Positions 8,959 through 24,713 of a stretch of 43,833 bases of DNA are shown here, piece after piece. Below the pieces are notes generated by a model. That model ran no database searches. It was not told the origin of the DNA and saw nothing but the letters and a program-made list of their open reading frames with translations. How positions within the stretch are numbered: position 1 is the first letter of the stretch; each line of letters opens with the position of its first letter. The DNA is from Bacteroidia bacterium (lineage in GTDB: Bacteria; Bacteroidota; Bacteroidia; AKYH767-A; OLB10), in NCBI GenBank assembly GCA_046160245.1, contig JBJXGU010000383.1, positions 1-43,833 on the forward strand. The letters run 5' to 3'. The translations under genes were made by a program, and so were the position numbers.

Positions 8959-11900
8959 TTACCTCACCAAATGCACATGCCCCACTTTCTTGTGTTGCTT
9001 ACCCCAAACATCTATCACTTTTACTTGATACACATAGGTTCCTTCTTGTGCTAATTGCGATTCACCTTCAATGCTTCCATCCCACGCGCGATTGCTTTTT
9101 CCTTCACTTTGGAAAATTCTGGCTCCCCAACGGTTAAAGATGCTTAACTCTACATCAACAATATATTCACCTTGAATGTTGAATCCTTCGTTAACACCAT
9201 CTCCATTTGGAGTGAATGCATTTGGAATCCACCAGCTGAAAATTGGATCTACACGCACCCAATGTGAAACGGAATCAGGACAACCGTATGAATTCACAAC
9301 CCATAAGGTTACTAAATAATTTCCGGTATCGCGATACGTGTAAGAGGGCTCAAACTGTGTTGAAGTACCACCATCACCAAAGGTCCAGTTGTATATTAAT
9401 GCACCTGAAGAAAGATTGATAAAATCGAAATTCGGATTGAGAATATTCTGCAATGCCGGATCCGGTTCAAACTGAGCATCCGGTCCAGGATAAACGGTAA
9501 CTGCGTTGTTGATGCTTACCGTATTGGTACAACCCGAATCAGAAACAACAGTTAAGGTGACGTTGAAATTTCCACTTGCCGTATAGGTATGTGTTGGATT
9601 TTGTAAGGTAGAACTTCCACCATCACCAAAATCCCAGGCCCATGAAACTACACCTCCTGAACTTACAAAAGAAGAATCAGTAAATGGAACTACGATAGGT
9701 CCGCAACCTGGATTACTCATCTCAGTAAAATAAGCTGTCGGTAATGGATTAACGAGAACCGTACCTGTGATGGTATCGTTACAACCATCATCACTCGTTA
9801 CAAGTAATGTAATGGTATAAGTTCCCTCTTGAGTGTATACATAAGTAGGATTCGCGGAACTAGAAGTACCTACTCCATCTCCAAAATTCCAAGAGTATCC
9901 TGTGATGGTTCCTCCAGGAACAAATGATGTACTGTTAAATTGTACCGGATTATTTAAACACGGAGTGTTCGCTGTAAATCCTGCAACAGGTAAATCGTTA
10001 ATGATTACATTGGCATTGGCTGTAGCTCTACAACCATTGGAATTAGTAGTTGTTAATGTGACTACATAAGTTCCGGCATTTGCATAAGTACTACTTTCAT
10101 TGGCTAACGTTCCTGTATTACCGTTACCGAAAGTCCAATCCCAATTTACAATATTGTTATTAGCACCGGAGCTGGTATCCGCAAATGGAATATTATCACC
10201 TACGCAACCTGTTCCTGCGGTTGGCTGCGGACTCGGAGCAGCGTACACTTCAACAGAATCTGTAATGGTGTTCTTACATCCTTGGTTCGATGTAGCTTCT
10301 AGAGTAATTGTATAGAATCCTGCAGCAGGATAAAACACGGTTGGATTTTGTGCAGTACTCGTTGTACCATTTCCTAATGTCCACGACCATCCCGATAAAT
10401 TCCCAGGATTAACTGTAGAGTTATCGATGATTTGCACAGGGAAATTCAAACATACATTTCCAGCAGTGAAATCAGGAACCGGTAATGGATACACCGTTAT
10501 ACTTCGCATCACATTCGCAGTACATCCATAAGGAGTAGTGATTGATAAATTAACATTGTACGTTCCTGCTGCAGTATACGTATGCTGAGGATGCATTAAA
10601 GTATCAGTTGTGTTATCTCCAAAATCCCAAGCGTATTGGAAAGTTCCTCCGCCTACAATTTGTGATTGATCGAAGAAGTTGGTACTTCCATTTAAACAAA
10701 CATCATTGCTGGAGAAATTGGCATTCGGCACCGGGAACACATTGATGCTTCTATTCACGGTATCGATGCAGCCATTTGCATTACTAACAATTAAACTAAC
10801 GGTATAGGACCCCGTTGAATTATAAGTATGGGAAGGATTTTGAGTAGACGATGTATTTCCATCTCCAAAATTCCATGCCCAATTACTGATGGCACCTGCT
10901 GTTCCTGAAGTCGTATCATTAAACACGATTGGATTTCCTAAACATGCATTTGAAGCTGTGAAACCGGCTTGAGGAATATCGTTAATTGTTGTAGAACGAT
11001 TCAATGTATCGCTACATCCTTTGTCGGTGCTTACTACTAAACTTACATTAAAAACTCCAGGATTTGCATAAAGATGATTCGGTTGTTGTGTGGATGAGAA
11101 TGAACCATCACCAAACTCCCAATACCATCCATTCACAACACCGGTTGTTACATTTGAATTATCAACAAAGACAATTGGAGATCCATTACATACTGGATTA
11201 GCTATAAAGTCGGCAGTTGGTTTTGGATTTACAACAATTGTTTTAGCAAGAATATCTTCACATGATTGATCCGATCCCACTCGTAAAGTAACGGAGTAAG
11301 ATCCTGGTGAAGTATAATAATGGACAGGATCACTTAGTTGACTAGTAGTTCCATCTCCAAAATCCCAATTGATATCACTAATGAATCCGTTAGTCAATTG
11401 AGAATTATTCGTGAATTGAACAGAATCTCCCTCGCAAACATCGTTGGCAACAAAGTCGGCGACAGGCATTGGATCGATAGTAATAGACTGTAAGATGGTG
11501 TCGTTACATCCAGCAGCACTTGAAACTATTAAGGTAACATTGTACACCCCTTCATTGGCGTAAGTATGCTGAGGATTTTGCAATGATGATGTTGTACCAT
11601 CACCCAATTGCCAAGCCCAAGTAGTGATGCTACCACCTCCTACCATCGATACATCGCTCAATTGTGTCACGCTGCCTTCACATACGTCAGGCGCAGTGAA
11701 ATCAGCAGTTGGCAACGGATTTACGGTAATGCTACCCGTTAGTGAATCTACACAACCAAATCCAGAAGTAGCTACTAAAGTAACTGGATACGTTCCAACT
11801 GTTGGAATGACTAAAGATGGATTTTGAACGATTGAGGAAGGACTTCCATTAACATTCCATTGCCATCCGATTATATTTCCACTCGTGATGGCAGATGTAT

Positions 11901-14900
11901 TTACAAAAGTATTGGCATCTCCTAAACAAGCCGGAGCAGCGGCAAAATTTACGGTTGGTAAAGGATGCACACTAACGTTATTCGTAAAAGATGCCGAACA
12001 TCCACCCGGATCGGTAATAGTTACTTGATATGTACCTGTACTACTCACATTGATAGATTGGGAAGCAGCTCCTGTCGACCATAGATACATCATACCCGGA
12101 TTACCTGCATCTAATAAAACATTCACACCTTGACATGCATTTACATTGATAGGTGTAGCACTCAAACCGGTTCCTCCTTCCGTTACATTGAAGGTTCCCG
12201 AACCTTGACAACCAAAAGCATTGGTAACAACAACTGAATAAACACCGGGATCCGTCACACCTATGGTTTGCGTAACAGCACCACTTGGCGTCCATAAATA
12301 AGTCATTCCGGGATTACCTGCATCTAATGTTGCGCTAAATCCTGTGCAGAAGAAAGCGTTCGATCCCACCACCGATGGTGTTGGATTTGTATTTACTTGT
12401 ACAGTATCTTTTCTTGAACAACCCGCAGAACTTGTCACGGTTACAATATAATTTGTAGAAGTAGTTGGATTCACATAAACTGTTGCAGTAGTTGCACCGT
12501 TATGTTGCCATAAATAAGTGCTTCCTCCGGAAGCGGTCAACGAAGTTGTTGTTCCAAAGCAAATTGTTTTATCAGGACCTGCATTCGCCGTTGGCAAAGG
12601 ATTCACTACAACACGAGCAGTATCGTTTCGCGTACAGCCATTTGCTGCCGTAACGGTAACAATATAATTCGAAGTTGCCGCTGGAGAAACCGTAATCGTT
12701 GGTGTGGTAGCGCCTCCCGGATTCCAGGAGTACGTTCCACCTCCTGTTGCTGTAAGCGAAATATTACCTCCCACACAAAAAGCTTTATCAGGACCTGCAT
12801 TAGCAACCGGTAGCGCATTAATATTTACTCTTACACTATCTCTTGACGTACATCCGTTAGCGTTAGTTACTACGACGTAATACATTCCACTGGCAATTGG
12901 TGAAACGGTTATTGAATTGGCAGTAGATCCACCCGGTGACCATACATAAGTTCCACCTCCGGTTGCAGTTAATGTAGTGGATGTTCCGGCACAAATAGCA
13001 CGATTCGATCCTGCATCCGCTAAAGGTAACGCATTAATAGTAACCAACTGTGTCATGGTATCTGAACAACCATGAGTGGTTGTACCAATCAAAGTAATCG
13101 TATAATTTCCGGCGGTACTGTAGGTGATGTTCGGACTCATCTGATTAGATGTTGTTCCATTTCCAAAACTCCACTGCCAATTATTAATGACACCATTGCT
13201 GGAAGTACTTGTATTATTTATTGAAACGGTACCTCCCAAACAAATAGTGGTTGGCGTAGAAGTGAATGACAAAACAGGTTCAGGGAAAATTTGCACAACT
13301 CTACTAATCGTCGCTTTACAACCTCCGGGAGTAGAAACCTCTAAGGATACATTATAATTTCCAGCTGCAGTATAAGCATGCTGTGGACTTTGAGAAGTTG
13401 AAGTTGTTCCATCTCCAAAATTCCAATTCCAACTAATTATATTTCCAAATCCAACCGTGGATTGATCGATGAACGGAATGTTGGTTCCAATACATCCCTG
13501 CGTAAAATTAAATGCTGCCGTAGGAATCGGATAGATATTCAACGTATCGGAAAGTGTAGCCGTACAACCTTGATTTGTTGTAACCGTAAGCACCACGTTG
13601 TACGCTCCTGGAGTATTGTATACTAAAACGGGATTTTGAGCATAGGAAATATTTCCATTTCCTAAATCCCAACTCCATGATGTGATACTTCCACCATTTA
13701 CAGAAGAGGCATCAAAGAAAAACACTGAATCATTTAAACACTCATCGTTTGGCGTAAAGGCTGCTTGTGGCAGCGGATTCACTTGAACTGTATTGGCAAT
13801 GGTTCCAGTACATCCACTGGCATCGGTCACCGTTACTGAATAAACTCCTGCTGCATTTACTGAAATGGTTTGAGAATTAGAACCTGTGCTCCAAACATAA
13901 GTTGATCCAGGGAAACCAGCATCCAAAGTCGCGGATTGTCCTTGACATATAGACGTTGTATTACTATTGCTAATGACTTGTCCACCCACAGTTACTTGTG
14001 TAGATGCTATTGACGTGCATCCGGCAGCGTTAGTAACGGTTACCGAATACAAACCTTGCGTGTTGACGCTGATGGTAGGTGTGGTGGCTCCAGTACTCCA
14101 TAAATAACTCGTTCCCGTTGCACCTGGATTTAATGTAGCACTTACTCCGCTACAAATAAATACTCCGGCTGGTAAACTGATTACCGGATTTGGATTTACC
14201 GTAACATTGACGAAGGCCGTAGCTTGACAACCATTCGCATTAATTACGTTTACTGCATAAGTAGTAGACGATCCCGGTGTTACAGTGATAGTATTTGAAG
14301 AACTTCCGGATGGATTCCAGCTATATGAAACGCCACCACCGGCTGTCAATGTTGTACTTTGTCCTTGACAAATACTCACGTTAGGACTTACGGTTGCCGT
14401 AGGTAATGGATTAACGAAAACTCTAACGGTATCAACCCCCGTACATCCATTCGCATCTGTAACAATTACAGAATAAGAAGTATTAGTAGAAGGAGAAACC
14501 GATATCGTATTACTTGTGCTTCCACCGGGAGTCCAGTTAAAAGATACTCCACCGTTTGCAGTAAGCACGGCATTGCTACCAATACAAATGGTAACATCGG
14601 GTCCGGCAGTTGCTACTGGCGGACCATTCACTTGTACTGTATGTTGAACGGTATCATAACAACCAAAAGCATTCATTGCTATTAGTGTTGCTGTATACGA
14701 ACCATTATTTCCATAAGTATGAGATGGGTTTTGTAATGTAGAAGTAGATCCATCTCCAAAAAGCCAGGTATACCCTGTTGCTCCACTGGAGGTATTATTA
14801 AAAGTGATAGGAGCTCCCTGACAATTATTACCAATTACTGCAAATGCAGCAACCGGTTGCGGATTCACCACAATATTTTGCGTTACCGTATCGGTACATC

Positions 14901-16758
14901 CTGCAGAATCCGTCACTACCAAAGTGGCTGTATAGGATCCTGGTCCTCCTAAAATCACAGATGGATTTTGAGAACTAGATGAACCACCGTTACTAAACGA
15001 CCATGACCAGCCTGACCCAGCCGGTGTACTGGTGTTCGTAAAGTTGATAAAGGACCCAGCACAAACCGTATCGGTACTAAAAGATGCAATTGGTAAAGGT
15101 GCAATTACTACAGGAAGAACAAGTGTATCGGTACAGCCAAAAATATTCTCAACAATCAATGAAACATTATAGGTTCCACTTCCCGGAAATGTATGTAAAG
15201 GATTTTGAAGATTTGATCCGGTACCATCACCAAAATTCCAAGTCCAACTTGACATTCCTCCTGCCGTCGTACTTAGATCGGTGAATTGAATGGGAGCATT
15301 TCCGCAAGCACCATCCCAGGTGAAATCAGCTAGGGGTTGAAAGGCTGCTATAATTTCAACTGTATCAGTACTCGAACAAGTACCATCAGAAACGGTTACT
15401 ACATACGTTCCCACTCCAACCGTTTGTGTTGGATTCGTAAATCCGTTGCTCCATAAATAAGTATAAGGAGGATTTCCACCACTTGCGTTGGCGGTGACGG
15501 TGGCAAGATCACTACAAGCTATGTATTGATCCGGGCCTGCGTCGACGGTAATACCCGTGACCGTTATACAATATGAATAAGTATTCGATCCGATAAAAGG
15601 ACAAGCATCATCACTTACACGAACTGTGAAGCAATGAGCGCTGTTACTAATATCAGCTTGAGTCGGAGTCCAGCAAAATGTTCCGGTTGGATGTGGAGAA
15701 CCCGCTGATGTAAACGTAGCATTTGGAATTGCATTATTCCAAAACAAGCCAACTTGTTGTCCAGCATTTATATCATTTGAAAACACATCAAAACAAAAAC
15801 TTTCATTTGCACAAACCGTCATATCAAAACTATTGGTTCCATTAATTCCTGTTAAAGTAGGAAGATCATTGGTACAATTTAAAACGGTAATTTGAATATC
15901 ACGCACTACATAACCAATCAACACACCGTTTCTATACTCTTTCACTAACACCGCCATTACGGTTACTTGCAATTGAGAAGGTGTAAAACAAATATCGCCT
16001 GTTTGAGGATTAAATTGAATTGGCCCAGTGGTCGCCAACGGATTAGTAGCATTATATGGAACGATATAACTCACATCATTGGTTACTGTTTGACGAGGGT
16101 TTACCAAAGAATAAACTAATGAGTCACCATCCGCATCTGTTGCACCATGGTTAAAACACAATTGCTGACCTAAGCAAGCGAAAGGAACGGGCTTATTAGT
16201 AAAGGTAGGAGAACTATTGCAAGGTGTGATGGTATTATTTAAAGAAGCATATATATAAAATGTATTAGAACCTGGACTACTGATGGTATTGATCGCTGCA
16301 TTTCTACAACATAGCGAATAAGAAAATTGCCAATCGGGACATTGCATCGGAAGTGTTACCACTCCTTCGTACACCCATTCTTGAATTCCTGTAAACGTTC
16401 CACCATTACAAGTACTTTGTGCAGTAGGACATAAATAGGTTACTTCTTGACCGGTGCCCGGGATGGGATTACAGGTAACACCTAATGTTTGACCACAACT
16501 TACAGATCGAATGTTTACATAAACATTAGCCGGAGCTAAGATTCCAATACAATCTCGATAAAACGACAATCGCACTTTGTAGGTGTTTCCACCAAGGCAT
16601 TCATAAGTCAGGTCGGCACCCATAGCGTGACTCGCTTTTGCTGGATCAGCCCGAAGGATGAACAGCAAGGCTGTCAGGATAAGTAAGCTTCTTCGTAGTT
16701 TTCGACTCATAACATCTCTTTTTTCGTTTCTACCACCTGTTAGTTGGGACAATTTCAC
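8959..16758 (-). CDS. Giant PKD/Ig-repeat surface protein with T9SS type-B (gliding-motility-associated) CTD
   Basis: Signal peptide ending AKA; about 17 WxW(F/L)G(D/N)G PKD repeats and about 10 YxWSTG/WxPGG Ig-like repeats counted by eye; C-terminal IPNAFTPNGDGVNE...IFNRWG...WDG...G.V.LVR. Confidence 0.92.
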   Translation of the reverse strand: MKLSQLTGGRNEKRDVMSRKLRRSLLILTALLFILRADPAKASHAMGADLTYECLGGNTYKVRLSFYRDCIGILAPANVYVNIRSVSCGQTLGVTCNPIPGTGQEVTYLCPTAQSTCNGGTFTGIQEWVYEGVVTLPMQCPDWQFSYSLCCRNAAINTISSPGSNTFYIYASLNNTITPCNSSPTFTNKPVPFACLGQQLCFNHGATDADGDSLVYSLVNPRQTVTNDVSYIVPYNATNPLATTGPIQFNPQTGDICFTPSQLQVTVMAVLVKEYRNGVLIGYVVRDIQITVLNCTNDLPTLTGINGTNSFDMTVCANESFCFDVFSNDINAGQQVGLFWNNAIPNATFTSAGSPHPTGTFCWTPTQADISNSAHCFTVRVSDDACPFIGSNTYSYCITVTGITVDAGPDQYIACSDLATVTANASGGNPPYTYLWSNGFTNPTQTVGVGTYVVTVSDGTCSSTDTVEIIAAFQPLADFTWDGACGNAPIQFTDLSTTAGGMSSWTWNFGDGTGSNLQNPLHTFPGSGTYNVSLIVENIFGCTDTLVLPVVIAPLPIASFSTDTVCAGSFINFTNTSTPAGSGWSWSFSNGGSSSSQNPSVILGGPGSYTATLVVTDSAGCTDTVTQNIVVNPQPVAAFAVIGNNCQGAPITFNNTSSGATGYTWLFGDGSTSTLQNPSHTYGNNGSYTATLIAMNAFGCYDTVQHTVQVNGPPVATAGPDVTICIGSNAVLTANGGVSFNWTPGGSTSNTISVSPSTNTSYSVIVTDANGCTGVDTVRVFVNPLPTATVSPNVSICQGQSTTLTAGGGVSYSWNPSGSSSNTITVTPGSSTTYAVNVINANGCQATAFVNVTVNPNPVISLPAGVFICSGVSATLNPGATGTSYLWSTGATTPTISVNTQGLYSVTVTNAAGCTSIASTQVTVGGQVISNSNTTSICQGQSATLDAGFPGSTYVWSTGSNSQTISVNAAGVYSVTVTDASGCTGTIANTVQVNPLPQAAFTPNDECLNDSVFFFDASSVNGGSITSWSWDLGNGNISYAQNPVLVYNTPGAYNVVLTVTTNQGCTATLSDTLNIYPIPTAAFNFTQGCIGTNIPFIDQSTVGFGNIISWNWNFGDGTTSTSQSPQHAYTAAGNYNVSLEVSTPGGCKATISRVVQIFPEPVLSFTSTPTTICLGGTVSINNTSTSSNGVINNWQWSFGNGTTSNQMSPNITYSTAGNYTITLIGTTTHGCSDTMTQLVTINALPLADAGSNRAICAGTSTTLTATGGGTYVWSPGGSTANSITVSPIASGMYYVVVTNANGCTSRDSVRVNINALPVANAGPDKAFCVGGNISLTATGGGTYSWNPGGATTPTITVSPAATSNYIVTVTAANGCTRNDTARVVVNPLPTANAGPDKTICFGTTTSLTASGGSTYLWQHNGATTATVYVNPTTSTNYIVTVTSSAGCSRKDTVQVNTNPTPSVVGSNAFFCTGFSATLDAGNPGMTYLWTPSGAVTQTIGVTDPGVYSVVVTNAFGCQGSGTFNVTEGGTGLSATPINVNACQGVNVLLDAGNPGMMYLWSTGAASQSINVSSTGTYQVTITDPGGCSASFTNNVSVHPLPTVNFAAAPACLGDANTFVNTSAITSGNIIGWQWNVNGSPSSIVQNPSLVIPTVGTYPVTLVATSGFGCVDSLTGSITVNPLPTADFTAPDVCEGSVTQLSDVSMVGGGSITTWAWQLGDGTTSSLQNPQHTYANEGVYNVTLIVSSAAGCNDTILQSITIDPMPVADFVANDVCEGDSVQFTNNSQLTNGFISDINWDFGDGTTSQLSDPVHYYTSPGSYSVTLRVGSDQSCEDILAKTIVVNPKPTADFIANPVCNGSPIVFVDNSNVTTGVVNGWYWEFGDGSFSSTQQPNHLYANPGVFNVSLVVSTDKGCSDTLNRSTTINDIPQAGFTASNACLGNPIVFNDTTSGTAGAISNWAWNFGDGNTSSTQNPSHTYNSTGSYTVSLIVSNANGCIDTVNRSINVFPVPNANFSSNDVCLNGSTNFFDQSQIVGGGTFQYAWDFGDNTTDTLMHPQHTYTAAGTYNVNLSITTPYGCTANVMRSITVYPLPVPDFTAGNVCLNFPVQIIDNSTVNPGNLSGWSWTLGNGTTSTAQNPTVFYPAAGFYTITLEATSNQGCKNTITDSVEVYAAPSPQPTAGTGCVGDNIPFADTSSGANNNIVNWDWTFGNGNTGTLANESSTYANAGTYVVTLTTTNSNGCRATANANVIINDLPVAGFTANTPCLNNPVQFNSTSFVPGGTITGYSWNFGDGVGTSSSANPTYVYTQEGTYTITLLVTSDDGCNDTITGTVLVNPLPTAYFTEMSNPGCGPIVVPFTDSSFVSSGGVVSWAWDFGDGGSSTLQNPTHTYTASGNFNVTLTVVSDSGCTNTVSINNAVTVYPGPDAQFEPDPALQNILNPNFDFINLSSGALIYNWTFGDGGTSTQFEPSYTYRDTGNYLVTLWVVNSYGCPDSVSHWVRVDPIFSWWIPNAFTPNGDGVNEGFNIQGEYIVDVELSIFNRWGARIFQSEGKSNRAWDGSIEGESQLAQEGTYVYQVKVIDVWGKQHKKVGHVHLVR

Positions 16759-17892: not shown

Positions 17893-18546
17893 CTATTTTT
17901 TCGTAAACTTTTTTACTGAAATCTTTTTAAATGCGTCTTCGTAAATAAAAGTATAGAGTCCAACCGAAAGTTGACTGATATCGATTTGCATATTTTTTTC
18001 TTTAATCGTTGACTCTAACACCAAAGCGCCATGATTATTCATAATCCGATAAGCACCACCGAATAAATCGCTATTTAATTTCAACTGAAGCAAACTGGAG
18101 GCTGGATTTGGAAACAGTTCAAAAATTTCTTTTTCCAACTCTATATTTCCACTTGCAATATTAACAACGAATGTCAACGAATCGGTTGGTCCGGGAACAA
18201 TGCCGGGGGTACATGGCCCTGGTGACAATCCGGCATCTACATGATAATAGAAAATATAAGTCCCAGCGGGTATAAGACCGAGGTTGAAAGTATCTTTATC
18301 ATTACAAATAAAAAGTGCTGCCCCCAAACAATGAATAGCATCCGCAAGAATTGAATTGCCGGATTGAAACACATTTAACGTTTTATCAATACAATCGCCG
18401 GAAGGAAAATCCACTTCAGCAATTAATTGAACTGGAGTATTCGTTGTAAGGACAGATGGATTTGTCCACAATTGTTGAATCCATTGGCCTTGACAATTCA
18501 AGGTTGAGAGAAAACTAATGAAGCTAACGAGTAAGTATTTTTTCAT
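17893..18546 (-). CDS. Small secreted protein with T9SS type-A CTD
   Basis: Signal peptide; C-terminal FPNPA...IDIS.L..GLY...KKFTKK. Confidence 0.82.
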   Translation of the reverse strand: MKKYLLVSFISFLSTLNCQGQWIQQLWTNPSVLTTNTPVQLIAEVDFPSGDCIDKTLNVFQSGNSILADAIHCLGAALFICNDKDTFNLGLIPAGTYIFYYHVDAGLSPGPCTPGIVPGPTDSLTFVVNIASGNIELEKEIFELFPNPASSLLQLKLNSDLFGGAYRIMNNHGALVLESTIKEKNMQIDISQLSVGLYTFIYEDAFKKISVKKFTKK

Positions 18547-18666
18547 GGTATTTGAATTTAAAAGATAAAGGTATTAAAAGTGAATCATCTAATAAATCGA
18601 AACTTGAGACCTTCATCATAATAATGTAAAAATTTATGGTTCAAGTATTTAAATCAAAAAGCATAC

Positions 18667-18694
18667 GTAGTATCAAGGCATGCCTTGATACTAC
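18667..18694. repeat. Perfect 28-bp palindrome GTAGTATCAAGGCATGCCTTGATACTAC (GTAG-REP-like)
   Basis: Exact inverted symmetry with GTAG...CTAC ends. Confidence 0.7.
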
Positions 18695-18696
18695 AA

Positions 18697-18817
18697 TTTC
18701 TGCCTCGGCTTAAAAAAAGGATCACCCAGTAGCGTGCTTTGCTCTGCTACTGGGTGATCCCTTGGTATCCCATCGTCAACATCAAAAGAAACGCTGCGCT
18801 ATTTTTACTTTTTTATC
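18697..18817. repeat. Distal copy of the tRNA-linked structured repeat (modules D-A-C)
   Basis: 18719-18817 is nearly identical to 22274-22371; 18697-18761 matches 22392-22456. Confidence 0.9.
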
Positions 18818-19298
18818 TATTTACACACCTATGTGCCGAAGATAAAGCAATATCATTAAAGGAATTACACCAATTTGAAATGACAAATTTAAGCAACAAT
18901 AAGAACCATTTATTAGAAATTGCTTGTGGAATTGCACTTTAATGTATCAGGCCGAATGACAGAATAAACAACTCAACGGTTTTGTTTTCCAGGATTAACA
19001 AGCCACTAATAATATTAAACTTAAAATCCATCGGAAAACTATTTAAAATCCGAGCTCATATTAAAGTAAAGTTAGCCTTACTCTATTTTCCATATTCAAA
19101 AAAAAGAGCATATAACCCATTTCGGCTATGGAATAAGAAAAAGATTCAACAGCCATTGGAACTTCGAATGAAAAATCATAAATACAAAAATAATTCTGAA
19201 CTCCTAATTTCGATTTTAAATGCGCACACATTTTTTGGAAGTGGGCTCAAAACAAAATAGAACTTTAAAGAAAAGAACTTTATTCTTATTCTTCATAT

Positions 19299-19336
19299 AA
19301 AAAAAGCGAGGCATTTAATTAATAAAAATGCCTCGC
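19299..19336 (-). terminator. Rho-independent terminator
   Basis: GCGAGGCATTT/AAATGCCTCGC stem plus T-run on the minus strand after the stop at 19351. Confidence 0.8.
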
Positions 19337-19350
19337 CCGAAACAATTGAA

Positions 19351-21294
19351 TTATTTTGTTAACATCATTAACTTAGCATCTATATAATTATTATCTAATA
19401 CTAAATGATATATGTAAGTACCAATCGATAATGTATTTGCATTTATTTCAATCGAACCTATCCCTGTATTTGAAATTTCGTAAGATTGTAATTCTACACC
19501 ATTAAGTGAATAGATTTTTATGAATCCCAACTTAGTATTTAAAGGGATATAATATTTGATAATAGTTTTTTGATTAAATGGATTCGGTGAATTTTGCTCG
19601 AGCTTCGGCTGGTCATTGTTCAAAATACTGGCCGCTGTTTTGGCTTGATAATCTGAACAACAATTTGAAAGAATGTTTTCAAATTCAACTTGTTTCTGTT
19701 TTACTATTGACATTTCGTCTTTGAGCAAATTTAATTCTTGGTTTTTTGTTTCAATTTCAATTTGTTGATCTTTTATTGCTTCGCTTAATAATGGAATTAT
19801 CATGTCATAATTAATTATTAAAGTGCCATTTGATAATTCCATAACTGCCTCTGGTATTACTTCTTTAACTTCTTGAGCAATAAAACCTAATGATTTCCCT
19901 GACTTGAAATTATAATCTTTATATTCTTCAACTTTATACTCATATGAAAACCCTTTTAGTTTTTTTACTAATTCAAGTGAGTTGTTAATTTGTATAATAT
20001 TTGTCTTGAATTTCTTATCTGAAACAGTCCAATTCCCTCCTGAAGAAAATGAATTTCCATATACAGCAAAAATCATATTTGTTGGATTTCCCCCATTTGG
20101 AGTAGCGCATCCAAGAGGAGCACCTCCAATTGCAACTGCATTGGTTGCAATGCCTGAGCAATTCAAAGGCGACCCTTGTTGAATTATACTACAGGCCAAT
20201 GATCCACTACTATTCCATAACGGAATAAAACCAGAAGTAGAACATGTTCTAAAGACAAAATCACTTCTTCTACTTATTCTTCCTGTTGTTGCGTTCCAGA
20301 CTAGTCCAGCAATATCCGTTGAAACAGGTAAATCCTCAAATCGAATATCAGTAGAACCCGTTGCTGTAAGATTCATATCAGCTACATGAAAATTACCCAC
20401 TGGTGCATCAGTTCCAATGCCAACTTTGTAATTATTTAAAGCTCCGTTTCTATCTCTACCATGTCCTAACTGCATGCCATTCGGAATGCTTACAATTGAA
20501 CTACACCCTATTGCTGTTGAATTGTCTGAAGACGATCCAACCATTGCATAATAACCGATTGCTGTAGCATTTTGAGAATTTGTTACAGAAGAGTACCCAA
20601 TGGAAGTCCAATTAGACCTGCTTATTGTTGTAGCATTTAAGTTTGTACAACCAGAGTTGCTTCCAAGTGAAGTATTGAATTTACCCGTTTGATTAAAATA
20701 TCCTGCTGCAAATCCATAATAAGTATTATGATCTCCTGATATATGACCAGTACCAGCTGTGCCACCCATAAAGGTATTATTATTACCACTACTAGTATTA
20801 GTTGATGAGTTATAACCAACTTTATACCCAACGAAGCAATTTCCTGTACCACTACTAAAGCCCCTTCCAGATTCAGCTCCAACTAAGGTATTATTACTAC
20901 CAGTTAAAAGATTATCCGCACAATAAGTTCCTACATAAGTATTACTTCCTCCTGATGTATTTGCTAAACCAGAAAAAGCTCCTATAAATAAATTGCTTGC
21001 TCCTGTCGTTGAATTATGCCCTGCTTCATAGCCAAAAAAACTGTTTCCTTGACCTGTGTTTGCAAAACCTGCTCTATATCCAAACGCAGAGTTGAAGTTT
21101 GCATTAGCATTACTAGATCCTGCAAAATTACCTACAAATGTTCCTGACCAACCTGGAACATTACATGCAGGAGCTCCAGCCCAACCAGCTGGGAGAGTAG
21201 TGGGAGGAGGTATTGAAACCTGACCTTTTACATTTGTTATTACAGTCATAGCAACTGTAATGACAGCAATAATTTTGATGTGATTTCTTTTCAT
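19351..21294 (-). CDS. Secreted tail-fibre/tailspike-like protein: Gly/Asn repeats, S74-type intramolecular chaperone, coiled coil and T9SS type-A CTD
   Basis: Signal peptide; about 8 NxxxGxxxG repeats of ~17 aa; ATAIG/STAIG; VGIGT; SDKKFKTNI...GFIAQEV..VIPEAV; LEQNSPNPF...GTYIYHL CTD. Confidence 0.85.
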   Translation of the reverse strand: MKRNHIKIIAVITVAMTVITNVKGQVSIPPPTTLPAGWAGAPACNVPGWSGTFVGNFAGSSNANANFNSAFGYRAGFANTGQGNSFFGYEAGHNSTTGASNLFIGAFSGLANTSGGSNTYVGTYCADNLLTGSNNTLVGAESGRGFSSGTGNCFVGYKVGYNSSTNTSSGNNNTFMGGTAGTGHISGDHNTYYGFAAGYFNQTGKFNTSLGSNSGCTNLNATTISRSNWTSIGYSSVTNSQNATAIGYYAMVGSSSDNSTAIGCSSIVSIPNGMQLGHGRDRNGALNNYKVGIGTDAPVGNFHVADMNLTATGSTDIRFEDLPVSTDIAGLVWNATTGRISRRSDFVFRTCSTSGFIPLWNSSGSLACSIIQQGSPLNCSGIATNAVAIGGAPLGCATPNGGNPTNMIFAVYGNSFSSGGNWTVSDKKFKTNIIQINNSLELVKKLKGFSYEYKVEEYKDYNFKSGKSLGFIAQEVKEVIPEAVMELSNGTLIINYDMIIPLLSEAIKDQQIEIETKNQELNLLKDEMSIVKQKQVEFENILSNCCSDYQAKTAASILNNDQPKLEQNSPNPFNQKTIIKYYIPLNTKLGFIKIYSLNGVELQSYEISNTGIGSIEINANTLSIGTYIYHLVLDNNYIDAKLMMLTK

Positions 21295-22182
21295 ATTATA
21301 AGTTTTAGATTAGAGTGAAATACAATATTAATTATTAAATCCAATCCACAAATTATTTATTGCAAATAATTTTAAAAAAAAATTACACCTATTAGAAATA
21401 AAGATTCACCCATAATAATGATTATTTTATTTTTTTAATGTCTGAATTACTTAGACAAACCACCTAAGCCCGATTAAACTAATGTTCACCAATATTCCCA
21501 AAAACCGAATTTAGATTATGTAATCCACGAAGGCAAATAATCAATGTAAGAAAATTATCACACATGAGGTTTTACAACAATTTCAGCCATAGCTGGAAAA
21601 TTTGGTAACACTTTTTTAAATTACTAAACTACTTTTGGGGGAAGTAATGGTTGGTGGGTTGATTACTGAAATAACATAATTAAGTACATCGCAGTTGTTG
21701 GTTATGTCATGAAAATTGTTTCGGTTATGCTAATCGTATTATTAATTAAAAAGTTCGTTCAATCAAACAAGATTCCATTAATTTATATTAATTGATCATA
21801 TGATGTTGAGTACAACGTTTTTTGTTTAATAGAAATCCGAAGCTTTATCGGGCATTCGGAATCCATCTTCATATTTGATATGTTAAAGTAAAGAACAACT
21901 TGAATGTATTTCTGGAATTTGTAAAAAACGGGGTAACGGATAAGCAACTATTTGCTTTGGAAAAATATTTTTATCGGTTGGCCCTTCATGCGTATATTAC
22001 AGATATTTAGCAACTTAACACGTCAAGAGTTATATATTTTTTAAAACAAAGAACTGGCAACTGGAAAGCTTTCAAATAAGTCTATTAATATCCTAGTTTG
22101 TCAATATTAAAATTAAAAAAAGAGCCCAATAGCTCTTTATGACGCTCTAATACAAAATATGACTTTTATGTCTGGCGGATAT

Positions 22183-22800
22183 GGGTAGCTAAATCAATTT
22201 TCTATCGCCAGCGCACAACGCTGGACTATTTTCATTTAGCCTCAACCTTGCAAGCGAGCTTGCGGTTGGGAAGGGATTACCCAGCAGCGTGCTTTGCTCT
22301 GCTACTGGGTGATCCCTTGGTATCCCATCGTCAACATCAAAAGAAACGCTGCGCTATTTTTATTTTTTATCCAAGGCATTGAAAGCCTAGCTTTCTGCCT
22401 CGGCTTAAAAAAAGGATTACCCAGTAACGTACTTTGCGCTGCTACTGGGTGATCCCGTTTTGGGGGTAGCTACCCCGAAGCAGAGCCTTCGGCACGCTTC
22501 AGGGTAATTACATGATTTCTTAATCGCCAGCGCTTGGCGCTGGACTATTTCAATTAAATCCATCATTGCAAGCAAGTTTACAGGGTTGAGGAACGAAGTT
22601 TCTACCAGGAGGGATTACCGAGTAGTGTGCTTTGCACTACTACTCGGTGATCCCGTTTTGGGGGTAGCTAAATCAATATTCAATTGCCAACGCGTTGCGT
22701 TGGACCATTTTCATTTAAATCCATCATTGCAAGCAAGTTTACACGCTAGCGTAACGAAGTTTCTGCTACCCTATGCTTGCTGATGGGTTTAAATGAAAAT
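22183..22800. repeat. Modular array of covarying hairpin repeats downstream of tRNA-Ser
   Basis: Hairpin A at 22273-22316, 22414-22455 and 22611-22654; module B (GGGTAGCTA...CCA(G/A)CGC..GCG(C/T)TGG...TGCAAGC) three times; inverted partial B at 22774-22800. Confidence 0.88.
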
Positions 22801-22828
22801 TGCCCTGTAGCGAATGCTACAGGGCAAT
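22796..22828 (-). terminator. Terminator of tRNA-Ser
   Basis: ATTGCCCTGTAGC-GAAT-GCTACAGGGCAAT stem with a T-run on the minus strand. Confidence 0.75.
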
Positions 22829-22842
22829 AGAATATTGATTTG

Positions 22843-22927
22843 CGGAGAGTTAGGGATTCGAACCCCAGGAAGTGTTACCTTCAACAGTTTTCAAGACTGC
22901 CGCAATCGACCGCTCTGCCAACTCTCC
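22843..22927 (-). tRNA. tRNA-Ser (anticodon TGA), CCA not encoded
   Basis: GGAGAGT/ACTCTCC acceptor stem, discriminator G, anticodon loop CTTGAAA, long variable arm, GGTTCGAATCC T-arm. Confidence 0.96.
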
Positions 22928-23237
22928 GGGTGCGAAATTATATGATTTTATATTACCAATTTTAGAAAAAATAAAAATTCTTGCAGAATAGTGAATTTAG
23001 CGTTTTCTAAATTCCAATTGACCCATTTATTTTCTTAAAAAAAATGCTTTAGCTATTAATCACTAACAGATTAGCATTGGTAATGATGGTGAAGACATTT
23101 AAAAATTAATGTTTTAATAAATGGGTCTACCTTTCAATTTTAAAGCTTAGAAATGCCCATTATGCTCTATTTGATGTGACGAAAACATGACAAGATCAAT
23201 AGTTTTATTAAATACCTTTGATCTCAAACCTAAGCTC

Positions 23238-24713
23238 ATGAAAAAGTCAACCCTAATTCTGATCTGCTCTTGCTTATTAAGTATGTATTCACTTGAAGCT
23301 AAGAATCTTCAAGCGAATTTATCGTATGCTACATTTTTAGCTCCTCAAAACGGTCCTTATATTGAAACCTATTTAACTGTTGACGGGCACACTGTTCATT
23401 ATAAGAAAAACGGAGAGTCTCTTTTTCAAGCTTCCATCGAAGCCAGTATCCTATTTCTTCAAGGTGATAGCATTCGCTATTTTGATAAATTTAATCTTTT
23501 AAGCCCTCCAACAACAGATACCCTCGGTTCTGTGAGTAACTTCACAGATTTACATCGTATTTCTTTACCGAATGGTACTTATACCATGGAATTGAAAATA
23601 AAGGATAACAATGCACTTGGTGCTAAGCCCTATTTAGTTCGGCAAAATGTGATTGTTAACTATTACACCAATGTAATTAGTATTTCGGATATCGAATTAA
23701 TCGATTCTTATACCGTGGCGGAGAAAGAAGGTCCATTGGCTAAGAATGGATATGAGATAATCCCCTACGTTGACAATTTCTACGGAGCCAATAAAAACTC
23801 ACTGAAGTTTTATTGTGAATACTATCACACCAAATCGGTTTTAGGTACAACTGATTTTCTACTTACTTATCAAATAGTAAACTTTGAAAGTCATCGTATT
23901 GTTGATGCTAATTCAAATTTTTCAAAACAAAGTCCGAAGGATGTTGGCATTCTATTAACCGAATTCGACATTACTGATTTACCTTCAGGAAATTATAATT
24001 TAGTAGTGAATATACGCGACAAGGAAAATAATTTATTAGCATCGAAAGACTGCTTTTTCCAACGAAGTCGTCCATTAACATTAGCTCAAGATGCGGGTGA
24101 TTTAAACTATATGAAATTAGATGTTTCAACCACCTTCGCTGCAGAAATCTCTCATCGCGATACGATTGCCGAGTACATTCGTTGTCTATGGCCTATCAGC
24201 AGTCCCAATGAAAATACATTTGCATTAAATCAATTGGAGATGGCTGACACCAAACTTATGCAACAGTATTTTTATGATTTTTGGCAAAAGCGAAACGCAC
24301 AAAATCCACAACTCGCTTGGTTGAATTATAAAAAGGAAGTAGACTTAGTCAATGCCACTTATACGATAGGTAAAAAGAAAGGCTATATGACTGAAAGAGG
24401 AAGGGTTTATCTTGTTTATGGTGCACCTAATCAAATTTCGAAAGCTTATAACGAGCCCAGCACCTATCCATATGAAATTTGGCAGTATTACACCCTGAAA
24501 AATCAAAGCAATCGGAAATTTGTTTTCTATTGTCCAGAGATTGGTGGACATGACTTTTCGCTCTTACATAGTGATGCTCGAGGAGAAGTTTTTGAATCGC
24601 AATGGATGGTTATCTTAAAGAAAAGAACAGAAACCATGAACGATTTTGATAAAACCAAAGCTAGATCAACCTATGGGAATAATTTTGAACAGATATTTCA
24701 AAATCCAAGATAG
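23238..24713 (+). CDS. GWxTD domain-containing secreted protein (ORF track start 23187 probably too long)
   Basis: FWQKRN...GYMTERGRVYLVYGAP...PYEIWQY; signal peptide from MKKSTL; -7 box TACCTTTG at 23213-23220 supports the 23238 start. Confidence 0.85.
   Translation: MKKSTLILICSCLLSMYSLEAKNLQANLSYATFLAPQNGPYIETYLTVDGHTVHYKKNGESLFQASIEASILFLQGDSIRYFDKFNLLSPPTTDTLGSVSNFTDLHRISLPNGTYTMELKIKDNNALGAKPYLVRQNVIVNYYTNVISISDIELIDSYTVAEKEGPLAKNGYEIIPYVDNFYGANKNSLKFYCEYYHTKSVLGTTDFLLTYQIVNFESHRIVDANSNFSKQSPKDVGILLTEFDITDLPSGNYNLVVNIRDKENNLLASKDCFFQRSRPLTLAQDAGDLNYMKLDVSTTFAAEISHRDTIAEYIRCLWPISSPNENTFALNQLEMADTKLMQQYFYDFWQKRNAQNPQLAWLNYKKEVDLVNATYTIGKKKGYMTERGRVYLVYGAPNQISKAYNEPSTYPYEIWQYYTLKNQSNRKFVFYCPEIGGHDFSLLHSDARGEVFESQWMVILKKRTETMNDFDKTKARSTYGNNFEQIFQNPR

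Follow-up and report, generated by a model that had tools for sequence, protein, structure and literature searches.

What does an array of similar hairpins behind a tRNA gene represent, and how did it come about? The question is raised by 1.9 kb of intergenic DNA between genes 19351-21294 (minus strand) and 23187-24713 (plus strand) in contig JBJXGU010000383.1 of a Bacteroidia bacterium (assembly GCA_046160245.1), whose 43,833 nt were analysed as a whole and are called the window below. All open reading frames (ORFs) of this region code for at most 65 amino acids. It contains a tRNA-Ser gene (anticodon tga) and, beyond it, copies of a hairpin, termed hairpin A, that alternate with a second module, B. 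tRNA genes are classic landing sites of mobile DNA, and the regions downstream of them are usually treated as plain terminators; the lineage is one of uncultured Bacteroidota, in an order that we take to be known almost only from metagenome bins. An earlier note on this DNA had proposed either a multi-unit structured RNA or an array of recombination or insertion sites. The array proved real, linked to the tRNA gene and covarying, but neither proposal is supported in that form: this is not an integron-type site array, nor a set of repetitive extragenic palindromes (REPs) served by a Y1 transposase, and it is not established as an RNA gene. We give a probability of about 0.5 to the view that the array is an expanded, mosaic, palindromic DNA module derived from the terminator of the tRNA gene and evolving at the DNA level, with tandem duplication. 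The observations on which this view is built are the architecture of the array, its linkage to tRNA genes, the covariation of its stems, the flipping and swapping of its hairpins and the copies of tRNA ends that accompany it.

The tRNA-Ser gene lies on the minus strand, so that the array is downstream of it; this placement agrees with the earlier note, although the hairpins had been written there in the antisense of the tRNA. A degenerate two-arm pattern for hairpin A gave five matches in the window, against none in 100 dinucleotide-preserving shuffles; these matches fall at four places only, because one place is symmetric enough to be recognized on both strands. The places (22274, 22414, 22612 and 18719) are essentially those reported before (22273, 22414, 22611 and 18719), and the compensatory changes quoted for them (CCCAG/CTGGG to CCGAG/CTCGG, and so on) are present in the sequence. 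The TTT loop and the single bulged T, to which the earlier note had drawn attention, are kept in all four copies of the window but not in those of relatives. Module B was found, as expected, three times, as 54-nt copies at 22183, 22502 and 22662 (74–81% identity to the reference copy). Tandem Repeats Finder did not call an array in the window, because the units are too diverged and mosaic. The features of the region are collected in Table 1.

Table 1. Coordinates of the array, its modules and the neighbouring features in the window
Feature	Position	Strand	Evidence and remarks
tRNA-Ser, anticodon tga	22842-22927	minus	ARAGORN; Rfam tRNA model, 52.6 bits
First unit: flank a, X, T-run b, central palindrome, b', second hairpin, a'	22662..22841	minus	Long-range inverted repeats I1, I3
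Module X, predicted intrinsic terminator of the tRNA	22790..22828	minus	13-pair perfect hairpin 22799-22828, then T-rich run; inverted repeat, terminator scan
Module B copy 3, mirror of X with flanks	22662..22740	plus	Repeat families D2, D3
Hairpin A copy 3	22610..22655; pattern match 22612-22653	plus	Model R1, 67.6 bits; putative pseudo-T-arm outer stem plus inner hairpin
Second unit (module B copy 2)	22446..22601	minus	Unit model R2, 44.3 bits
Hairpin A copy 2	22406..22457; pattern match 22414-22455	minus	Seven T next in tRNA sense; terminator-like
Linker module D	22392-22413, repeated at 18697-18718		BLAST against own genome
Linker module C	22317-22371, repeated at 18761-18817		BLAST against own genome
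Hairpin A copy 1	22272..22317; pattern match 22274-22315	plus	Two-arm pattern; model R1
Third unit: short central palindrome (~22240-22270) and module B copy 1 (22183-22261)	22165..22279	minus	R2, 51.2 bits; families D2, D3
Terminator-like hairpin and T-run just past the array end	22113-22138	minus	Terminator scan (flagged at 22119-22138); strong
Insert splitting the array, one 647-aa gene	18818..22270; gene 19351-21294 minus		Flanking direct repeats; Pfam Peptidase_S74
Array far end: D', hairpin A copy 0 (18717-18762), C'	18697..18817	plus	Seven T after hairpin in tRNA sense
Hairpin A copy 0	pattern match 18719-18760		Far end of the array, split off by the insert
Terminator-like site	18666-18695	minus	Terminator scan

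The arrangement of the modules is best understood from the first unit. Read in the sense of the tRNA, B is bordered by the reverse complements of the sequences that border X, both in the window and in a relative (G011). B is thus not a new element: X and B are the mirror halves of one palindrome with a short central palindrome between them, forming a unit of about 120–170 nt. Model R2, built for this unit, matches the first one at 22644-22763 with 87.1 bits, and a four-way junction is the predicted fold of either of its strands, with energies of −78.5 and −78.2 kcal/mol (z near −10 in both cases). The second unit holds an extra 38-nt hairpin (~22472-22509) that matches contig C207 of the same genome and belongs to the inner family described below. 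Terminator-like features are not confined to X, since the terminator scan also flagged module B copy 1 on the plus strand, and the hairpin A copies at 22414 and 18719 are followed by seven T in the sense of the tRNA and hence look like further minus-strand terminators. In the genome from which the window comes (3.9 Mb in 407 contigs, 90% complete) all three matches to R2 are in the window, and modules B, C and D do not occur outside it; a fifth copy of hairpin A is present on contig C117.

Outside this genome the unit is widespread and its position nearly fixed. R2 has matches in 63 of the 146 genomes of the order and in 16 of the 40 genera sampled; within the genus itself, 18 of 19 further members have them. 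At 25 of the 29 best loci the unit comes straight after a tRNA-Ser gene, the remaining four being near contig ends or without a tRNA in the available stretch; 18 of 20 further loci also follow a tRNA gene (Ser, Pro, Cys or Arg), which makes 43 of the 49 loci inspected. The first unit begins 25–43 nt after the tRNA in 43 loci. Of the 109 R2 matches in all the DNA retrieved, 79 are on the same strand as a tRNA and downstream of it (Ser 62, Pro 13, Cys 3, Arg 1), the share of Ser being inflated since R2 was built from tRNA-Ser loci. Hairpin A has full-length matches to its model R1 in 11 of 83 genomes of the family. Eight full-length loci, among them one in G009 (anticodon gct) and one in another genus (G049), have a tRNA-Ser gene within ~600 nt and in the same relative orientation; of the other loci, the C117 copy is 4.4 kb from a tRNA-Ser gene (gga), two are at contig ends and the one in G007 has no tRNA nearby, and G011 gave one short match. 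The model scan that the earlier note had called for thus strengthened the linkage to tRNA genes, and a genome-wide scatter without such association was not what emerged.

The number of units is, by comparison, very variable. Many loci carry 2–5 in tandem, the range being 1 to 5 or more per locus; Tandem Repeats Finder reports 4.7 copies of 141 nt at 94% identity in G011 and 1.8 copies of 182 nt in G017, whereas only a plain terminator is found at the orthologous site of G010, G012 and G013. In a tree of 46 units (a quick one, with 6 of 43 branches well supported), tRNA type required 16 changes, a number that none of 200 shuffles (mean 27.2) came down to; the genome label required 37. Because units cluster by tRNA type and not by genome, they would mostly descend with their locus, and the tree suggests some exchange of units among tRNA-Ser loci.

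The pairing of the unit is maintained by compensatory changes. In an alignment of ~120 nt across nine genomes and three tRNA-Ser isoacceptors, RNAalifold predicted 27 consensus pairs, 15 of which change on both sides; 88.3% of the cells form pairs, against 74.6% in shuffles and 36–48% in controls with slid partners, and none of 500 shuffles reached any of the five measures. The inverted flanks a and a' differ between loci and covary. More homologs therefore reinforced the covariation noticed in the window alone, rather than dissolving it. For hairpin A the picture is less simple. Seventeen copies from seven genomes could be aligned over 16 outer pairs, with 95.2% of cells being standard pairs. 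Five outer pairs change on both sides; the covariation score was reached by 0 of 500 shuffles, whereas that number of covarying pairs was reached by 46 of 500, and three of the five pairs belong to one swapped inner hairpin and are thus not independent events. The non-Watson–Crick positions of the outer stem show no strand preference: one of them is a G.U wobble when read on the plus strand, and two others are wobbles on the minus strand.

The inner part of these 17 copies has the orientation of the window in eight, is flipped in four, is another palindrome in three and is shortened in two. It follows that bulge and loop are not constant features of hairpin A. The earlier note had compared them with the extrahelical bases read in integron attC sites or by REP transposases; since orthologous copies may have them on the opposite arm or have something else in their place, this comparison is not supported as it was made, and their behaviour argues against a hairpin read by a protein in a strand-specific manner.

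Hairpin A (36–48 nt) is in fact composite. At homologous loci its outer stem is that of a tRNA T-arm, i.e. the T-stem with the outer bases of the T-loop, and the middle of the loop has been filled by a small GC-rich palindrome, the inner hairpin (~30 nt). The resemblance to a tRNA does not stop there. An exact copy of the tRNA 3' end of at least 12 nt (mostly 15–19) is found one unit length downstream, usually 145–190 nt away and starting in the T-loop or T-stem, at 16 of 44 tRNA-Ser loci (one of them is an adjacent tRNA gene, which leaves 15) and at 5 of 18 loci of other tRNAs; as the loci were chosen via model matches, 15/44 and 5/18 are not population estimates. At the Ser and Pro loci inspected in detail the copy is preceded by the 5' strand of the tRNA's own T-stem and by a small GC palindrome that replaces the middle of the T-loop, the situation being less clear for Cys and Arg. 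The copy measures 15–16 nt in G017 and 19 nt in G014 and G016, and G004 also carries one. For the hairpin A of C117, the 13 nt that come next are identical to the end of the tRNA-Ser (gga) gene 4.4 kb upstream, whereas the longest run shared with the tRNA ends of other loci is 6 nt. The trailer that follows the copy is the tRNA's own in about half of the cases inspected in detail, as tandem duplication predicts.

Taken together, the finding that B mirrors X, the constant placement behind tRNA genes, the variable number of units, the flips and swaps, the equal foldability of both strands and the duplicated tRNA ends point to a palindromic module that evolves as DNA. In the scheme that we favour, the tRNA's own terminator (hairpin X and its T-run) would be joined through the conserved central palindrome to a mirror half, namely module B, in which an A-run and the second hairpin are followed by the tRNA trailer in reverse complement; at tRNA-Ser loci hairpin A would form the end of the module. 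Whole periods, comprising the segment from T-arm to tRNA 3' end, the trailer and the module, would then be duplicated in tandem. Template switching during replication and unequal crossing-over, which would alter both arms together and invert loops, are the likely engines by which the palindromes were made and kept. Their likely use is a two-way stop of transcription, in which X and the hairpin A copies with a T-run would serve the tRNA strand and the mirror half the opposite one. Such a module would require no dedicated recombinase and would not yield a trans-acting RNA.

Both aspects have precedents. Inversion of the spacer and homogenisation of the arms are among the outcomes of template switching described in the portions available to us of two papers (PMC8604942, PMC8794818), and these, together with the accessible part of a third (PMC4689423), present quasi-palindromes and inverted triplications in which arms change together, loops are inverted and segments are ordered direct-inverted-direct. 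The events treated in those portions occur at arbitrary sites, unlike the single architecture seen here behind tRNA genes in 16 genera (PMC8794818, PMC8604942, PMC4689423). This recurrence suggests either that the mechanism is preferred at T-arms and terminators or that selection is at work. As to use, X and two hairpin A copies have the form of intrinsic terminators arranged in tandem, a GC hairpin followed by a T-run on the tRNA strand, and the mirror half gives the same on the other strand, like two-way terminators. Ordinary terminators differ in that their sequences are not shared between loci or genera, that they lack a conserved centre of palindrome and C-rich linker, and that they do not multiply along with part of the gene before them.

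Several facts weigh against this DNA-level scheme. Covariation as strong as that of the unit would equally result if a folded strand were under selection. Different genera and tRNA types share the sequences of the central palindrome, the second hairpin and the C-rich linker, which is not expected if the unit is simply left behind by local inverted duplication, and the second hairpin is not the reverse complement of X. In the sense of the tRNA, G.U cells outnumber A.C cells 93 to 46, in an alignment that was fitted to a model of that sense. The trailer after the tRNA-end copy differs from the native one in the other half of the cases, which fits insertion better than tandem duplication. The weak R2 matches behind tRNAs other than Ser may in part reflect generic terminator features (T-run, A-run, GC hairpin). 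Finally, the tails of hairpin A in the window share only runs of 4–7 nt with the tRNA end, so that the pseudo-T-arm reading of these copies rests on their homology with other loci; the part derived from the tRNA appears to have largely decayed in the window. A search for recognizable tRNA fragments in the units of the window was likewise abandoned, as local alignments gave p about 0.15–0.8 and the ungapped match to the last 24 nt (13–14) was no better than in shuffles. The conserved blocks and the differing distal trailers in particular are left unexplained and keep alive the explanations by insertion modules and by RNA that are discussed below.

Another reading, which we consider unlikely, makes the unit a hitherto undescribed functional element that serves tRNA genes, those for tRNA-Ser in particular. 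Its conserved four-way junction, T-arm mimic and spare tRNA 3' end would then act as folded RNA or as single-stranded DNA, for example as a docking or crossover site where a recombinase supplied in trans stacks modules and occasional cargo, or as a trailer RNA with a part in the control of processing or as a decoy for factors that bind tRNA.

The copies of tRNA ends bring to mind site-specific integration. Tyrosine integrases of genomic islands and of Bacteroides mobilisable elements leave direct repeats of tRNA 3' ends, and the loci examined here resemble their products in having the exact last 13–19 nt of the tRNA at the far side of the unit. In one explanation of this kind, which also seems improbable to us, small gene-less modules would integrate into the segment from T-arm to 3' end of the tRNA, hairpin A would be an att-type junction and the recombinase would act in trans; each module would bring a replacement tRNA end and terminator, and sometimes cargo such as the 3.45 kb insert of the window or the 4.4 kb of C117. 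The direct repeats flanking the unit at 15 tRNA-Ser and five other tRNA loci speak for it, as does the distal trailer, unlike the proximal one in about half of the loci and in G014 similar to a native trailer with its own terminator. So do the preservation of both T-stem strands in the pseudo-T-arm, as expected of a junction formed by crossover in the T-loop, and the presence of hairpin A behind three tRNA-Ser isoacceptors and in a second genus. On the other hand, the equal trailers in the remaining half of the loci are the signature of tandem duplication, the clustering of units by tRNA locus implies that movement is rare at best, and a matching tRNA end would be needed for each of Ser, Pro, Cys and Arg. 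The tRNA-end repeat itself, 13 nt in C117 and present at 15 of 44 tRNA-Ser loci, is reduced to 4–7 nt at the four hairpin A copies of the window. Moreover, unlike the DNA bounded by att sites, the 120–190 nt between the repeats are devoid of genes and of any integrase, the trailer is often duplicated and the distal T-loop always has a palindromic filler. Insertion can be retained from the earlier proposal in a changed form only, as the loop of a pseudo-T-arm appears to have taken up palindromes and, at other loci, a copy of the tRNA end follows.

One candidate for cargo is the species-specific insert that splits the array in the window. It is bracketed by direct repeats of 102 nt, 96% identical and made of array modules (BLAST against the own genome with the linker stretch 22317..22413 gave 96% over 102 nt and 94% over 65 nt), and it contains ~900 nt of non-coding DNA in addition to its single gene. 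No ortholog of this 647-aa gene was found in 19 genomes of the genus, the best match in another genome being 38% and limited to the C-terminal part; its Peptidase_S74 domain is of the tail-fibre chaperone kind. In relatives the array runs directly into the homolog of gene 17893-18546, and the hairpin A copy at 18719 is where this array originally ended, before the insert cut it off. Paralogs of the C-terminal part of the 647-aa gene lie 1–3 kb from tRNA-Asn genes in several relatives. The segment of C117 between tRNA-Ser (gga) and hairpin A is occupied by genes for secreted proteins. A gene of the same contig (L155:711-2240) encodes a 509-aa protein with a type IX secretion tail, whose family has up to 29 matches per genus genome at E 1e-40 or better; a synteny test based on this gene, which adjoins the hairpin, was uninformative because the family has tens of paralogs per genome.

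An enzyme that could move such modules was sought in several places. The ten large ORFs at 5418-28885 comprise no recombinase or HUH enzyme (FtsK, LolA, adhesins, NUDIX, glycosyltransferase and similar), and no integrase was seen in the window or beside the arrays inspected, most of which have unannotated ORFs. Phage and plasmid collections, searched in distant mode, gave no match to the array. At the orthologous tRNA-Ser of G001 there is a tyrosine integrase 270 nt downstream (L050:432-1673; Arm-DNA-bind_5, Phage_int_SAM_5, Phage_integrase), which at first sight favours insertion modules at this very tRNA. A partial relative of it adjoins the tRNA-Ser of G025 (C137), a member of another family. 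As the missing enzyme it was rejected, since no relative at E 1e-30 or better exists in G000 or in 10 other genus genomes drawn, i.e. in genomes that bear arrays; nor was a tRNA-end repeat of 16–30 nt found within 60 kb at the far end of its insert. The association with tyrosine recombinases or with Y1 transposases that the earlier note had envisaged is thus not borne out in the window.

Could the fold be that of an RNA? A functional structured RNA, either a 3' trailer produced by read-through of X or an antisense RNA, would account for the 15 covarying pairs across genera and tRNA types, for the constant position 25–43 nt after the tRNA, for the conserved sequence blocks, for the excess of G.U over A.C (with the bias of that alignment) and for the very stable fold, which no known family explains. 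The unit opens, however, with a canonical terminator, at which most transcripts should already have stopped; both strands fold equally well, close relatives differ widely in copy number (0 to 5 or more), inner hairpins are found inverted or exchanged, the bulge changes arm, and the non-Watson–Crick positions of hairpin A are strand-neutral. The single RNA run that covers the locus does so at 22842-22942 only, that is over the tRNA alone, and consists of contigs, which cannot show absence; among 20 sequencing runs none holds half of the sampled words. Searched against Rfam 15 at gathering thresholds, the window gave the tRNA only, in keeping with the earlier statement that no named family could be assigned, and the segment 21900-23100 and the arrays of three relatives, at E up to 10, gave weak hairpin-type matches far below thresholds. 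The hairpin array matches no known RNA family, and any role we attribute to it is read from sequence. All considered, we regard a selected RNA as quite unlikely, somewhat more so than insertion modules.

The least likely explanation, and to us a decidedly improbable one, is that the hairpins are REPs, or REPINs (doublets of REP hairpins), spread by a Y1 (HUH) transposase of the REP-associated tyrosine transposase (RAYT) kind, and that the array corresponds to a bacterial interspersed mosaic element (BIME). The resemblance is nonetheless considerable. According to the accessible part of a description of the REP, BIME and REPIN sequences of Proteobacteria (PMC3733652), these are short GC-rich imperfect palindromes, extragenic and mostly downstream of genes, with proposed roles in termination and RNA stability, and they form mosaic clusters in both orientations with conserved linkers and with sub-families defined by complementary stem changes, all of which applies here. 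The unit is a hairpin doublet like a REPIN, and hairpin A, with an inner hairpin of ~30 nt, agrees with the imperfect palindrome of 20–40 nt that is typical of REPs. The same part of that source defines REPs by a conserved unpaired four-base tag at the foot of the hairpin (PMC3733652); a constant tag of this type was not seen by eye at the foot of hairpin A, no formal scan having been made. The differences concern the size of the unit (120–170 nt, four helices), its tight linkage to tRNA genes, which is not a REP property, its copy of T-arm and 3' end and the lack of a flanking Y1 gene. Copy numbers differ as well: REP families have tens to thousands of dispersed copies, whereas the own genome has five of hairpin A, three of the unit and 12 of the inner hairpin, and modules B, C and D are confined to the window.

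The inner hairpin belongs to a low-copy dispersed family present in 21 of 121 genomes of the order (the 12 sites in the own genome included; the reversed pattern used as control gave one site in total). Members lie directly behind the tRNA-Ser (gga), tRNA-Asn and tRNA-Met genes of the own genome, and also in tandem clusters after protein genes. At C171:8300-11650, for instance, the final ~60 nt of a 1134-aa gene are present three times, and each copy precedes simple repeats and tandem hairpins of the inner family. Only this sequence-defined family is real; a scan for a generic internal-loop motif with the stem left free gave 25 matches, not enriched over the control mean of 21.8.

Y1_Tnp genes are frequent: 34 of 41 genomes of the lineage have them, with as many as 9 in a single genome, and the own genome has one. 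Located at C260:13200-14497 (L021), it encodes a 153-aa protein of the RAYT kind and has on both sides arrays of its own short GC hairpin, which differs from hairpin A and has seven copies on two contigs. The Y1 loci of six relatives were inspected too, and all these loci were flanked by hairpins other than hairpin A or the inner hairpin, contrary to the association with RAYT or HUH genes considered in the earlier note. In G003, G008 and G011 no inner-family site lies beside Y1, the two being on different contigs or, on the one contig that they share, 35 kb apart. Conversely, six of the seven relatives without a Y1_Tnp match (completeness 71–98%) still carry the unit.

Two other kinds of element were compared with the array. 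With integron attC sites it shares imperfect hairpins that have unpaired bases and an outer stem in one orientation; it differs from them in that no integrase or attI is nearby, that no ORF separates consecutive sites and that the unpaired bases change arm or vanish. Among the ten large ORFs at 5418-28885, the part of the genome that was searched for this purpose, no integron integrase or attI was found beside the array, and the sites, 140–200 nt apart, enclose only chance ORFs of 52–65 aa, with the exception of the 3.45 kb insert. Miniature inverted-repeat transposable elements are recognized by terminal inverted repeats, a short target duplication and a related autonomous element. The inverted flanks a and a' of the unit could pass for such repeats, but they are locus-specific and covary, and the duplicated target would be 13–19 nt or more; an autonomous relative did not come to light, no search aimed at one having been made. 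Literature searches on palindromic repeats downstream of tRNA genes in Bacteroidetes yielded no description of such a module.

The interest of the locus thus lies in one architecture that is met again and again, in 16 of the 40 genera sampled, behind genes for tRNAs of Ser, Pro, Cys and Arg, and that keeps its pairing by compensatory change. If it is no more than the product of replication errors at terminators and T-arms, it would be a natural case in which template switching builds hairpins that look selected, and would call for caution in covariation-based RNA discovery; if it is a recombinase site or a trailer RNA with a function, a new type of element linked to tRNA genes would be at hand. 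In both cases the module breaks assemblies, several arrays being located at contig ends, and it should be masked or modelled in screens of Bacteroidota for non-coding RNAs.

Some further observations concern the surroundings of the array. A metagenome contig from run X3 skips 40 nt at 22734-22775 and has 184 nt replaced at 22984-23169, so that both the array and the upstream flank of the tRNA vary between close strains. The window also encodes, at 8959-16758, a 2599-aa protein with 15–16 PKD repeats and a CHU_C type IX secretion signal, as well as several further secreted proteins with Por_Secre_tail or CHU_C domains. The own genome is repeat-rich for its size: simple tandem repeats are abundant in its intergenic DNA, and two short perfect palindromes are present in ~75 and ~54 copies, on 53 and 23 contigs, respectively. 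Lastly, long hairpins with a flanking A-run and T-run follow two tRNA-Leu genes on contigs C231 and C244; they have the form of two-way terminators and a sequence unrelated to that of the unit.

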